Part shown: positions 13,998 to 19,376 of the stretch, piece by piece
Layout of the letters: every line of letters begins with the position of its first letter
Position numbering within the stretch: position 1 is the first letter of the stretch
Assembly (NCBI GenBank): GCA_948678575.1
Contig: CAPPGO010000001.1
Span: forward strand, 195,951 to 259,950
Length of the DNA stretch: 64,000 bases
Direction: 5' to 3'
DNA from: an uncultured Clostridia bacterium
Lineage (GTDB): Bacteria > Bacillota > Clostridia > TANB77 > CAG-508
Translations under genes and position numbers: made by a program
The notes under the pieces: generated by a model
Told to the model about the DNA's origin: nothing
Database searches by the model: none
What the model saw: the letters and a program-made list of their open reading frames with translations, nothing else

Positions 13998-14981
13998 TTA
14001 AATATCTTTATATTTAATATATTTATTGTAACTAATGTATGCTAGTATTGCAAGAATAGTTATTGGAATTAATATCATTCCAGCTCCTGCTGCTGGAATT
14101 TTAGTTCCTGCAATTGTTCCATCTGTATTTGTATTATTAGCTACTCTATTTCCATTTGTATTAGTGTTTGTGTTTCTATTTGTATTTTGATTAGTATTTG
14201 TGTTTTTATTTTGGTTTTTATCTTTGTCTTTATCATTATTGTTGTCATTGTTGTCATTGTTGTTATTGTTGTTATTGTTGTTGTTATTTCCTCCATTATT
14301 ATCTTGTCCATTGTTATCATTTTTATTGTCATCTTCTTTTTTATCGTCATCAGTTTTGTTATTATCTTTATCATCTTCAGCTGGTTTTTGAGTTTCATCT
14401 TTTACAACTTTAATATCTAATGCTGCTGAAACTGGTTCAGATTTTTCTGCTTCATCAGCTGAATATGCAACAATAAAATCTACTTTAATAGCTTCTTTTA
14501 TTTCATTTATTGTAGCACTTTCTTTAACTTGAAGTTTTAATTTTAATAAATCTGAATTTTCTTTAATAGCATCATTGAAATCCATAACAAAGAAGCAATC
14601 ATTGTTTTCAATATTTTCTTTTTTAGTATTAAAAACAACATCATAGTCTGCATTTGTTGATGTTGGATTAAAAGCATAGCTTAATTTATTAGTAACTTTA
14701 TCTCCTGATTTTATTTCTATTTTTCCATCTTTTGAAACAATTGTATCTTTATTAATATCTTTTAAAATATTTTCATCAATATTAATATATCCTTCTATTG
14801 ATGAAATTTCTTTTGAAATATTTTTAACATCCACTGTGACTACTAATTCTTCTCCTGGTTTAACAGAAGTTTTATCAGCTGTAAGTCCTACATTCATTGT
14901 AATTGCAGCATAAGCATTTGTACAAACTAATACTAATGCAATAAAAACATATAATACTAATAATTTTTTCTTCATTGACAT
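13998..14981 (-). CDS. Membrane-anchored surface protein with an N-terminal cohesin-like beta-sandwich domain, an Asn/Asp-rich low-complexity spacer and a C-terminal TM anchor (putative anchoring scaffoldin)
   Basis: It has a signal peptide (MSMKKKLLVLYVFIALVLVCTNAYAA). The domain VGLTADKTSVKPGEELVVTVDVKNI...IEGYINIDENILK resembles the cohesin fold pattern. A poly-N/D linker follows, then C-terminal GMILIPITILAILAYISY plus a basic tail. It sits adjacent to a dockerin-bearing gene. Confidence 0.5.
   Translation of the reverse strand: MSMKKKLLVLYVFIALVLVCTNAYAAITMNVGLTADKTSVKPGEELVVTVDVKNISKEISSIEGYINIDENILKDINKDTIVSKDGKIEIKSGDKVTNKLSYAFNPTSTNADYDVVFNTKKENIENNDCFFVMDFNDAIKENSDLLKLKLQVKESATINEIKEAIKVDFIVAYSADEAEKSEPVSAALDIKVVKDETQKPAEDDKDNNKTDDDKKEDDNKNDNNGQDNNGGNNNNNNNNNNNDNNDNNNDKDKDKNQNKNTNTNQNTNRNTNTNTNGNRVANNTNTDGTIAGTKIPAAGAGMILIPITILAILAYISYNKYIKYKDI
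14141..14420. repeat. Coding trinucleotide (AAY/GAY codon; GTT/ATT on plus strand) low-complexity repeat encoding a poly-Asn/Asp/Lys-Asp linker
   Basis: The plus strand reads gttgttattgttgttattgttgttgtt... and translates to NNNNNNNNNNNDNNDNNNDKDKDKNQNKNTNTN. Spurious antisense and off-frame ORFs populate the ORF track here. Confidence 0.8.
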
Positions 14982-15084
14982 CTTCTCCTATAATCGTTAT
15001 ATATACATATTAAGAATATCACTAATTAAAATTAAATGCAATAGTTTTTATAAATACTTTTTATGGTAATTTCTTACTTAGAAA

Positions 15085-18100: not shown

Positions 18101-19376
18101 AATTTCTACAAGTTGTATTGATGTGTGGAACTTTTATTTTTCTTTTTGTTGTAACATTTCCACTATTATCTGGTGATGAAACATCTACTGCTTCATATGG
18201 TAATACATAATATTCTCCTGTTGCCAAATCTCTAATTGAAGCTTCTCCACCTTCTGGATTAAATCCATTTATTTCATAGATTGCTGTACCATCAATACTT
18301 AAAGTTGCTTTTGATCCACTTACTGTGTACTCACATAAATCATAATAGATTTCTCCATCACTTGTTGATTCATATTTATAACTTTCTAGATTTGGATTAA
18401 TTTCTTGATTTTTTGTTAATTGGTCTTTTACTGCAAAATATAAATTTCTATCTTTTAATATAACAGCATCTGTATCTGCTAAGTGAACAATATAATAAAT
18501 TGTGAATATACTATCTTTTAATATGTTCTTTGATGCTGGGTTATTAATATAAGAATCTGGATTTATATCTTTAATAGTAATTTCTAATTTAATTAAACCT
18601 TCATAAGGTATATATGTTCCAGTTGTACTTTCGTAACCAACTTGAATTTCAAATTCATTATCATCTGCTGTAACTGGATTTGGTATGCTACTACTTACTA
18701 TATATGGATAAGTACTTGCAGAATTTCTGCTAGAAGCTGAATACCCTGTTACAAACCATTCTGCTTTTAAATAACCTTTATTAGTTATTTCGCCTTTATT
18801 TGCAATACCTGCTAATTCTAAAATTTGAGGTAATGAAAAAGTTTCTCTTGTTTTTTGTTCTTCAAGATCTACTTCAACATCAACAACAGCCTTTGCAGAT
18901 TGACTGCTTAAATTGATTGCATTTGTATCTAACGCTAATAATCTCATTATAAGTGGTTCAATTGCACTTACATCTTTAATATTATTAGAAGAAAGATCTA
19001 GGTAACTTAAATTTGCTAAGCTATTTAATACCTCTAAATTACTTTTTTCTGTTAAATTGTTTGCAGATAAAATTAAGCTTTTTACATTTCCAAAAAATTC
19101 AATTCCTGAAATGTTGCTTATTCCTTTTTCTTTTAAAGAAATAGTTTCAATACTATTTAATACTGATGATGACATTCCAATAGTATGCTCAACATCATTG
19201 TATGTAGCACTAACTCCTTGTTCTTTGAAGTAGGCTTTTAGACCATTATATAGGTCAGTATTGAAGGTCATTTTTGTTGCTGAATCCTCAGCAGCAAATA
19301 CTTCCACTACTGGAAGAAAGCTACTGAATAACATTACTGCAATTAATGTTATTACGATTAATGTTTTCCTTCTCAT
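15162..19376 (-). CDS. Secreted leucine-rich-repeat (internalin-like) protein with a Big_2 Ig-like domain and a C-terminal type-I dockerin
   Basis: It has a signal peptide and several LRR units (LDLSSNNIKDVSAIEPL, LDLSYNFIRDIKPLEVLKNLKYLDVSDNLL). The Big_2 region is SVTISSDKTTVKAGETVNLSATVEG...AVTWKV. The C-terminal duplicated Ca-binding dockerin segments are GDVNGDGVADALDSSLIKAY and ADINNDGAVNIIDVRLLLYHRA. Confidence 0.75.
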   Translation of the reverse strand: MRRKTLIVITLIAVMLFSSFLPVVEVFAAEDSATKMTFNTDLYNGLKAYFKEQGVSATYNDVEHTIGMSSSVLNSIETISLKEKGISNISGIEFFGNVKSLILSANNLTEKSNLEVLNSLANLSYLDLSSNNIKDVSAIEPLIMRLLALDTNAINLSSQSAKAVVDVEVDLEEQKTRETFSLPQILELAGIANKGEITNKGYLKAEWFVTGYSASSRNSASTYPYIVSSSIPNPVTADDNEFEIQVGYESTTGTYIPYEGLIKLEITIKDINPDSYINNPASKNILKDSIFTIYYIVHLADTDAVILKDRNLYFAVKDQLTKNQEINPNLESYKYESTSDGEIYYDLCEYTVSGSKATLSIDGTAIYEINGFNPEGGEASIRDLATGEYYVLPYEAVDVSSPDNSGNVTTKRKIKVPHINTTCRNLYVDAYNEPQALVITDLNIVNKITSLILNDKRIYDLSGIEGFQGLESNLNVSYNYIDTLANIYALQKNKESRNGSLQELFNEKKSAMATTKSKVTAAYQKAEDAKKNVEKEIKSIEENIAKLATIADTASSEYTSTVKAIQEAIKRIYGDGTDENKGLIDGIDKAFTDPQEGLNANISEMYSRLAAMYRVFNKEYKLTTILTPELNYQTEEEYEAYLEKNKTLESAKAMTNDEISRIATLESADALSSLEKDLIVNAFGLALSDEQDKPISYALNELVKALEETGANRTSWVAMNAKFIEVGVYSSAANYCLIQRMNNTAPAGACYAEEYLKSVLENYSYEGINTELVKAIYEKIKLGKTSSDYTASLNNIFSNYLTKTLNYSGTILSACKGTYNPVNKLDKVVTNVSSGITEIGNYPNKVEFVETVNSKTSSSGIFFYEQLMSLANKFTAIDETSLYVNLPALKRIDIRNNEIETLGPTEVTMVSKDGAEVTSTETLASIKNLKELYAGHNFVSGDIACVDWNTLTSLKKLDLSYNFIRDIKPLEVLKNLKYLDVSDNLLGGSFNISIRKMEKLHDLILAGNQYTDISQILNDYEMITGGDFTSYFAREDTLNLDLSRQTLQINIKDIIKKDEQANVKEIDLPAIFAQLEYIDATRTAFGTTSSKGSVQARGGKAYIPINEAGDYQAVVKVIAANGYPEEVSTSVGINTKCTINYTVSENGSTNATEPEKIVKSVTISSDKTTVKAGETVNLSATVEGINLADSDKAVTWKVAGNSSSNTKISNDGMLAVAENETSSKLTVTATSVANSDIKATQTITVTRDTAPIDPTDPTEPTTPEEPTYGYEVSSDRTEIMGISPNTKSSNFKTKLVNDSSYKVEVKREGNTISENEYVATGDIVVISKDGKAVASYELVVKGDVNGDGVADALDSSLIKAYRAKLEKLSGAYLKAADINNDGAVNIIDVRLLLYHRARIDGYIL

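Follow-up and report, generated by a model that had tools for sequence, protein, structure and literature searches.

A stretch of 64,000 nucleotides from contig CAPPGO010000001.1 of an uncultured Clostridia bacterium (the window in the following) carries two neighbouring minus-strand genes that we interpret, with a probability of roughly two thirds (about 0.68), as a two-gene surface-display module, in which a wall-anchored single cohesin would hold a dockerin-bearing, internalin-like leucine-rich repeat (LRR) protein. The open reading frame (ORF) of the cargo protein, 15162-19376, encodes 1404 amino acids (aa) and that of the anchor protein, 13998-14981, encodes 327 aa. A first-pass annotation, made from the letters alone, had given both ORFs; they were found at exactly its coordinates and strand, including the dockerin sequence quoted there. 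Both proteins start with a signal peptide, the larger one ends in a dockerin, the smaller one consists of a cohesin followed by a stalk and a C-terminus with the anatomy of a sorting signal, and the genes are linked in a conserved order. According to the proposed mechanism, the small protein is secreted and sortase would link it covalently to peptidoglycan via an LPxAG-variant sorting signal, with its single cohesin presented at the tip of a flexible, approximately 100-residue Asn/Asp-rich stalk. The large protein would be secreted separately, its C-terminal calcium-binding dockerin would plug non-covalently into the cohesin, and docking would place two internalin-like LRR modules plus a helical insert on the cell surface. 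The displayed cargo would most likely be an adhesin or ligand-binding protein, with a host or environmental ligand.

At the C-terminus of the cargo, residues 1341-1392 matched the Pfam model Dockerin_1 (PF00404) with an E-value of 1.7e-11 and 44.6 bits (gathering cutoff 22.9). Two segments were found, each with a 12-residue loop of the pattern D-x-[ND]-x-D-G-x-x-[DN]-x-x-D and a helix after it. The loops, DVNGDGVADALD (residues 1343-1354) and DINNDGAVNIID (residues 1377-1388), carry Asp or Asn at the ligand positions 1, 3, 5, 9 and 12; across 22 homologs at least 90% conservation was observed at the calcium-ligand positions, and both helices are nearly invariant over wide divergence. The duplicated calcium-binding segment that the first-pass annotation had recognised is thus a canonical two-loop dockerin.

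The cohesin was found by searching the domain separately. Full-length anchor protein gave no cohesin match in Pfam or NCBIfam, presumably because of its low-complexity tail, and this is probably the reason why the gene is nameless in all sources. Residues 26-196 alone, however, matched Pfam Cohesin (PF00963) with an E-value of 2.6e-6 and 28.1 bits (cutoff 24.1), covering profile positions 3-125 of 139. The same model was matched by 12 of 17 relatives of the anchor (best E 3e-10), and several homologs carry a precomputed PF00963 match. An AlphaFold (AF2) model built from a 17-sequence alignment was all beta, a jelly-roll sandwich of about 150 residues, with a mean predicted local distance difference test score (pLDDT) of 85.9 and a predicted template modelling score (pTM) of 0.82. 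When this model was compared to the PDB using Foldseek, the first 45 matches were almost exclusively cohesins. Best among them was the type I cohesin CohA2 of C. acetobutylicum (6kgd_A; E 6e-5, TM-score 0.62, probability 1.0); type I cohesins of C. cellulolyticum, type II cohesins of A. cellulolyticus and C. thermocellum SdbA, cohesins of R. flavefaciens, R. bromii and C. perfringens and an archaeal non-cellulosomal cohesin were matched as well. What had been described as a cohesin-like pattern can therefore be called a cohesin, both by profile score and by predicted fold.

The family around this domain is small, with 72 clusters at E ≤1e-3 among 1.84 billion representatives, most of them proteins of 290-480 aa with the domain at residues ~25-195. 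Its most conserved motifs, EGYINxDE, DYDVxFNT and NDCFFVMD, would, as judged from chain order, correspond to strands 3, 5 and 6. These three strands make up the dockerin-binding sheet in solved cohesin-dockerin complexes. One could object that the cohesin score lies barely over the Pfam cutoff and that, to our knowledge, many non-cellulosomal dockerin-like and cohesin-like modules are without a demonstrated partner; the dockerin-like segment would then be a calcium-dependent stabilising or self-association module only, and the small protein a generic immunoglobulin (Ig)-like wall protein that docks nothing. We consider this very improbable, since the structural matches are cohesins specifically and not general Ig folds, conservation is concentrated in the three strand motifs instead of being evenly spread, and the near-invariance of both dockerin helices points in the same direction.

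The first-pass annotation had further assigned the dockerin to type I, and here the evidence is divided. Among solved dockerins, the nearest ones are of type I and borne by enzymes, namely those of C. thermocellum Cel9D and Xyn10B, C. acetobutylicum Doc0917 and C. cellulolyticum Cel5A (E 5e-5 to 5e-4), compared to E 0.02-0.1 for type II X-dockerins, and the best fold match of the cohesin is type I, too. On the other hand, a sequence search of the PDB with the cohesin gave a type II cohesin (5g5d) as the best match, and a small beta domain stands beside the dockerin as in X-dockerins. This domain aligns weakly to X-dockerin chains (5k39_B, E 0.02; 2b59_B, E 0.024) and is a possible X-module-like partner of the dockerin. 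With structural and sequence matches of the cohesin pointing to different types, assignment of the dockerin to type I is not firm.

The cargo protein matched the Pfam LRR models LRR_4 (E 1.2e-19) and LRR_8 (E 5.5e-12), and its first LRR block additionally gave weak LRR_EndoS and LRR_9 matches. By sequence, residues 58-154 and 865-1021 resemble internalins A and B and Roco LRR with E-values down to 4e-19. An AlphaFold model of residues 153-1159, made from an alignment with 22 homologs, reached a pLDDT of 87.4 and a pTM of 0.80; its 43 best PDB matches in Foldseek were all Listeria internalins, with LRR and Ig-like inter-repeat domain aligned (E ~1e-8, probability 1.0). Sequence matches (E to 5e-12 for InlA) and predicted structure therefore both support the internalin-like character which had been proposed for this protein. 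An LRR solenoid with adjoining Ig-like inter-repeat domain is present, but the LPXTG or GW surface anchor of the internalins themselves is lacking, and the C-terminus is instead the dockerin, ending ...GYIL. The cargo would work like an internalin but is not classed as one. The earlier label LRR/Big_2 held for its LRR part; the Big_2 part is weak in this copy (11.7 bits, under the cutoff), though several cargo orthologs carry a precomputed PF02368 (Big_2) match. In NCBI nr, a 1401-aa relative from the 90% cluster of the cargo is named 'dockerin type I domain-containing protein'.

Between its LRR segments the cargo contains an all-alpha insert, for which a search with the family profile against the PDB returned coiled-coil noise only; no informative homolog was found in the PDB or Pfam. 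The insert includes one 63-residue helix and is kept in homologs down to ~21% identity within it. A catalytic domain was detected in the cargo neither by Pfam, nor in the AF2 model, nor by the profile search with the insert.

Next to the cohesin, the anchor protein was analyzed for the way in which it is held at the cell. Its C-terminus reads ...GTK-IPAAG-AGMILIPITILAILAYISY-NKYIKYKDI, with 28 residues after IPAAG. Motif statistics were compiled for 65 proteins of the anchor family (250-520 aa). In 62 of these, a motif [ILM]Px[TA]G lies 26-31, mostly 28, residues from the C-terminus, and a hydrophobic stretch with 2-5 Lys/Arg behind it comes next. At motif position 4, 24 of the family proteins have Thr and 36 have Ala, and an ortholog with 42% identity in the cohesin domain carries IPATG. 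LPxAG is an occasional variant of the sortase motif in S. aureus and S. uberis (PMC3436756, PMC2657157). Signal peptide, single cohesin, LPXTG-type motif, hydrophobic stretch and basic tail, as in a sortase-anchored scaffoldin of the ScaE/Sca2 type, are present. A simple membrane anchor would hardly account for a motif that stays fixed while the linker around it changes fast through repeats, and we therefore infer from the sequence that the anchor is probably attached covalently to the wall by sortase via an LPxAG-variant sorting signal and is not a plain membrane protein.

The first-pass annotation had seen a C-terminal transmembrane (TM) anchor here. The hydrophobic stretch and the basic tail do exist, but membrane anchoring is probably wrong in view of IPAAG and the alternation of LPxTG and LPxAG in homologs. 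That the cohesin protein sits in the cytoplasmic membrane by a C-terminal TM helix, without sortase processing, would be in line with the ~19-residue length of the stretch ahead of the basic tail and with Ala instead of the usual Thr at motif position 4. Moreover, no sortase gene was found in the window (no TLxTC signature), and the NCBIfam hidden Markov models for LPXTG anchors gave no significant match to the anchor tail. These models also failed to match the relatives with canonical LPxTG, so their silence is uninformative either way. We regard the TM anchor as unlikely, given that the motif stays at its fixed distance in nearly the whole family despite the fast-evolving linker, that LPxTG and LPxAG interchange freely among homologs, and that LPxAG proteins are counted as sortase substrates in the two species named above; a plain membrane anchor has no need of the motif.

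The spacer between cohesin and motif, described earlier as poly-Asn/Asp, indeed contains 39 Asn and 16 Asp among its 98 residues. Anchor length varies with this stalk among near-identical strains (306, 315, 316, 317, 321, 323 and 325 aa versus 327 aa here), and the exact anchor sequence of the window was absent from a collection of 15 billion proteins. The true start of the gene is probably the ATG at 14975, as judged from Shine-Dalgarno spacing and the MKKK... N-termini of homologs. Anchoring as a lipoprotein via the invariant Cys20 was rejected, since V or L at -1 before the Cys leaves no lipobox. A terminator-like palindrome at 14077-14099 (perfect 8-bp inverted repeat) is coding DNA for IPAAGAG; orthologs differ after the motif, and we consider it a coincidence.

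The case for a partnership of the two proteins comes from their linkage. The gene order TatD, LRR-dockerin, cohesin, LemA was also found in same-species contigs, in 6 species-level genomes with cohesin identities of 35-64%, in 2 further metagenome scaffolds and in 3 more distant lineages. Altogether, cargo and anchor genes were retained at one locus in 13 of 13 lineages, adjacent in 12 and separated by one inserted gene in the remaining one; this linkage holds over a range of 27-99% identity for the cargo and as low as ~35% for the cohesin. A dockerin forms the C-terminus of nearly all 23 cargo homologs, the most distant of which have 27% identity. In a word-indexed search of 5.8 billion proteins, the close relatives of the dockerin were all fragments of the same cargo family, which hints at a dedicated pair. 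Furthermore, dockerin helices both ending in RA[KR] (K1364 and R1398 here) occur together with the cohesin strand ND[CV][FY], and helices both ending in E/D with ND[ASTY][KR], in 13 of 13 pairs. Such a correlated charge change would make chemical sense as a contact, to which it points weakly. From the conserved linkage and this one correlated change, we infer that cohesin and dockerin of the neighbouring genes bind each other.

Two of these lineages differ in gene content. In L017, a Cys-rich protein of 476 aa with a prepilin-like N-terminus (MKENKGITLMALVVTVIVLLILSA...) is encoded between the dockerin and cohesin genes (9077-10507), and in the most distant lineage, L015, a GH25 lysozyme-family gene (7418-8446) follows the cohesin gene in the place of LemA. 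Proteins of 84-95 aa that look like stand-alone dockerins were among the closest matches of the dockerin, but were rejected as a further type of cargo. In L010 and L011 (~6400-6800), 100-N scaffold gaps fall within the cargo's repetitive Pro/Thr linker, and the spurious 'dockerin-only' gene calls of this size in public protein sets are C-terminal fragments caused by these gaps. Likewise, P0035, a fusion of NTP-transferase and dockerin on a 654-bp contig, was judged to be an assembly chimera.

Both modules could be real and still not be mutual partners, if another cohesin or dockerin of the genome were involved or the cohesin served as a general anchor, with adjacency being merely inherited gene order. 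R. bromii Sca2 binds several different dockerins (PMC4611034), the locus is a conserved housekeeping neighbourhood in which gene order is stable anyway, and the view is limited to a 64-kb window of the genome. Nevertheless, we judge this to be quite unlikely: both genes were kept together in all 13 lineages though both evolve fast, the close dockerin relatives found belong to the same cargo family throughout, and the paired charge switch on both sides fits a direct contact. The display module would, moreover, still be suited by an anchor of general use, as long as this cargo is among its ligands.

Several observations weigh against the wall-anchored display module as a whole. Besides the sortase gene missing from the window and the silent anchor models, the TM-scores of the cohesin model against solved cohesins were moderate (0.5-0.64), and an exhaustive profile search with the cohesin family across the 1.84 billion representatives did not reach the classical cohesins; we attribute both to a divergent family member. 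The charge swap follows one deep lineage split and may be one event picked from many differences between clades. Finally, cohesins or dockerins beyond the 64-kb window could be the real partners. The earlier proposal of a minimal anchoring scaffoldin plus dockerin cargo nevertheless stands in its central part, as cohesin and dockerin are genuine, the genes are neighbours and the cargo is an LRR protein; membrane anchoring is a part that probably does not. In line with the earlier remark that none lies nearby, no glycoside hydrolase is present among the genes of the 64-kb window. A cellulosome or amylosome, i.e. a multi-cohesin scaffoldin together with dockerin-bearing glycoside hydrolases, is not encoded within these 64 kb, which hold 1 cohesin, 1 dockerin and 0 glycoside hydrolases.

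A simple two-gene operon without internal signals was rejected, since the intergenic spacer holds both a strong hairpin and a promoter-like site (Table 1). The cargo gene has the ribosome-binding site GGGAGG, 9 nt ahead of its ATG. Hairpins just past the cargo stop codon were found in 12 of 12 lineages (L004-L015), with folding energies of -15.5 to -26 kcal/mol and unrelated sequences; the structure is what has been kept. Mostly they are followed by an A-run and not by a U-tract. The intergenic hairpin may stabilise, attenuate or terminate the cargo transcript; in the first two roles it may determine how much cargo is made relative to anchor.

A more far-reaching version of the display module can be put forward tentatively. 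The pair would be a strictly one-to-one cohesin-dockerin fastener, vertically inherited across a clade of uncultured low-GC gut Clostridia, and would serve to display a single internalin-like adhesin for host or mucus in a releasable way. The charge swap (dockerin K/R with cohesin Phe versus dockerin E/D with cohesin K/R) would determine specificity lineage by lineage, and the conserved hairpin the protein ratio. We consider this possible, if on balance doubtful.

Several known systems resemble the pair in part. Sca2 of R. bromii, which is 'reminiscent of ScaE' in having one cohesin plus a sortase signal, was found in vitro to bind a dockerin from a 2xLRR protein (PMC4611034), and ScaE of R. 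flavefaciens is wall-linked via LPXTG and sortase (PMC5301203). Both share the layout of the anchor described here, in which a single cohesin stands between signal peptide and linker and an LPXTG-type sorting signal forms the C-terminus. Their role, however, lies in amylosomes or cellulosomes, which contain several enzymes and many dockerin cargos, whereas the present pair appears dedicated, and ScaE binds X-dockerin dyads. The anchor here differs also by its LPxAG variant, by a cohesin too divergent for profile searches to or from classical cohesins, and by having no glycoside hydrolase nearby. In Cellulosilyticum lentocellum, the genome's single annotated cohesin and dockerin are encoded by adjacent genes, and the products ClcC and ClcD form a heterodimer (PMC13487519); that pair enhances cellulase activity, whereas the present cargo is an LRR protein. 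R. flavefaciens FD-1 encodes SIGN-LRR-Doc proteins, i.e. secreted LRR proteins ending in a dockerin (PMC2930009, PMC5301203). They share this layout with our cargo but are minor members of >200 dockerin proteins in a fibre degrader and have no dedicated adjacent anchor gene.

The Listeria internalins (InlA, InlB, InlC, InlH, InlK, InlP) share with the cargo the LRR solenoid and Ig-like inter-repeat domain. They have their own LPXTG or GW attachment, a task that falls here to the separate cohesin protein, and unlike them the cargo possesses two LRR modules and a helical insert of ~320 residues. The type I pair CohA2-Doc0917 of C. acetobutylicum is close on both sides, CohA2 as the best cohesin fold match and Doc0917 (6kg9, 6kgc; E ~2e-4) as one of the nearest solved dockerins, but on the cohesin side sequence identity is just 14-16%. 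At the dockerin recognition positions 10 and 11, A-L and I-I are found here, compared to Ser-Thr and Ser-Ser in the aligned C. thermocellum dockerin.

Table 1 Features of the cargo and anchor genes and of their flanking sequences (positions in the window)
Feature	Position	Strand	Basis
Best-matching promoter-like sequence ahead of cargo gene: TTGAAA, 16-nt spacer, TG, TATTAT; 10/12 matches	19413..19440	-	consensus match only
Cargo gene, secreted LRR protein (1404 aa) with C-terminal dockerin	15162..19376	-	ORF translation and Pfam
Cargo signal peptide, residues 1-28 (...VEVFA|AED)	19293..19376	-	read from translation; kept in orthologs
LRR block 1, InlB-like, residues 58-154	18915..19205	-	phmmer vs PDB: InlB E 6e-9, LRR protein 4r58 E 3e-13
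All-alpha insertion between LRR segments, ~320 residues (485-802)	16971..17924	-	AF2 pLDDT ~90, helices H333-649 (model numbering)
LRR block 2 and Ig-like inter-repeat domain (internalin domain), residues ~865-1144	15945..16784	-	phmmer: Roco LRR E 4e-19, InlA E 5e-12; Foldseek
Ig-like, Big_2-like domain, residues 1158-1235	15672..15905	-	Pfam Big_2 E 0.26 (11.7 bits), I-set E 0.026, both under cutoff
Pro/Thr-rich linker, residues 1248-1267, DTAPIDPTDPTEPTTPEEPT	15576..15635	-	tandem 9-nt repeats at 15577-15620
Small beta domain adjoining dockerin, residues 1268-1340	15357..15575	-	kept in all orthologs
Dockerin, residues 1341-1404, two calcium-loop and helix segments	15165..15356; loops 15315-15350 and 15213-15248	-	Pfam
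Stem-loop between the genes, just past cargo stop codon: 18 bp, -24 kcal/mol, z -7.5	15109..15147	-	folding energy
Extended -10 promoter-like site in intergenic spacer: TTGCTA, 17-nt spacer, TG, TAAAAT	15085..15113	-	consensus match only
Anchor gene, 327 aa: signal peptide, cohesin, low-complexity stalk, predicted sorting signal	13998..14981	-	ORF translation
Anchor signal peptide, residues 1-25 (...CTNAYA|AIT)	14907..14981	-	read from translation; invariant in family
Cohesin domain, residues 26-196	14394..14906	-	Pfam Cohesin, AF2, Foldseek
Asn/Asp/Thr/Lys-rich low-complexity stalk, residues 197-294	14100..14393	-	composition; DNA tandem repeats 14145-14318
Predicted C-terminal sorting signal: IPAAG (14085-14099), ~19-residue hydrophobic stretch, NKYIKYKDI	14001..14099	-	family motif statistics
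Intrinsic-terminator-like hairpin after anchor gene: 10 bp then T-run, -13.8 kcal/mol, z -4.85	13968..13993	-	scan and folding

The genomic setting is that of a low-GC gut bacterium with housekeeping genes around the pair. The G+C content of the window is 22-34% (2-kb windows), and closely related sequences come from gut metagenome-assembled genomes labelled 'Clostridia bacterium'. Genes for SpoIIE, MinC, a PBP2-type transpeptidase, an M23 peptidase and capsule functions were confirmed by Pfam, whereas rpoB/rpoC-like ORFs at the left end of the window and MreB, MreC and MreD were assigned by reading translations. The TatD-family gene (19624-20389, minus strand) is split into ORFs of 67 aa and 204 aa, likewise in the same-species contig L001 and in L014, and is intact (250-257 aa) in L004-L009; the split probably reflects a frameshift or pseudogene in some lineages. 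Similarly, a ComM/YifB-type Mg-chelatase-like gene (9658-11271, minus strand) is broken around Walker A into a Lon_C/ChlI part (246 aa) and a Mg_chelatase part (290 aa). In L007 and L008 the gene is a single uninterrupted frame (488-499 aa), and in L005, L006 and L017 its fragmentation goes further.

Four giant secreted proteins of 2289, 1701, 2722 and 1930 aa are encoded in a row at 26187-52552 (minus strand). Three of them contain SdrD_B, DUF11 or SpaA-like domains, the 2289-aa protein is without a Pfam match, and cohesins, dockerins and glycoside hydrolases are absent from all four. In the first three, a hydrophobic stretch and basic tail lie near the C-terminus; in the 1930-aa protein the stretch lies further in and a longer Lys-rich tail follows. 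Ahead of the hydrophobic stretch, the motifs TPPTG (2 proteins), VKTG and VSTG were found, which may constitute a second class of sortase signals distinct from the IPAAG of the anchor.

The principle of the pair is already known, as earlier work has described minimal pairs in adjacent genes and also single cohesins with a sortase anchor that bind the dockerins of LRR proteins. Distinctive here are the unannotated, highly divergent cohesin, the LPxAG motif, the unusual helical insert of the cargo and the conserved intergenic hairpin, as well as the one-to-one linkage, which has remained stable throughout an entire clade of uncultured gut bacteria, inside a housekeeping neighbourhood. The locus provides a clean, minimal and evolutionarily stable case of cohesin-dockerin parts that probably serve a non-polysaccharide role in abundant uncultured gut Clostridia. 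Because the cohesin gene is nameless and escapes the usual domain scans of full-length proteins, the number of such pairs is probably underestimated. A compact, orthogonal, calcium-dependent tag for surface display could also be made from the pair, and its two charge-swapped forms may represent two specificities that are already at hand. If the strictly one-to-one fastener were true, cohesin-dockerin would be a general device for mounting adhesins in bacteria that do not degrade fibre.

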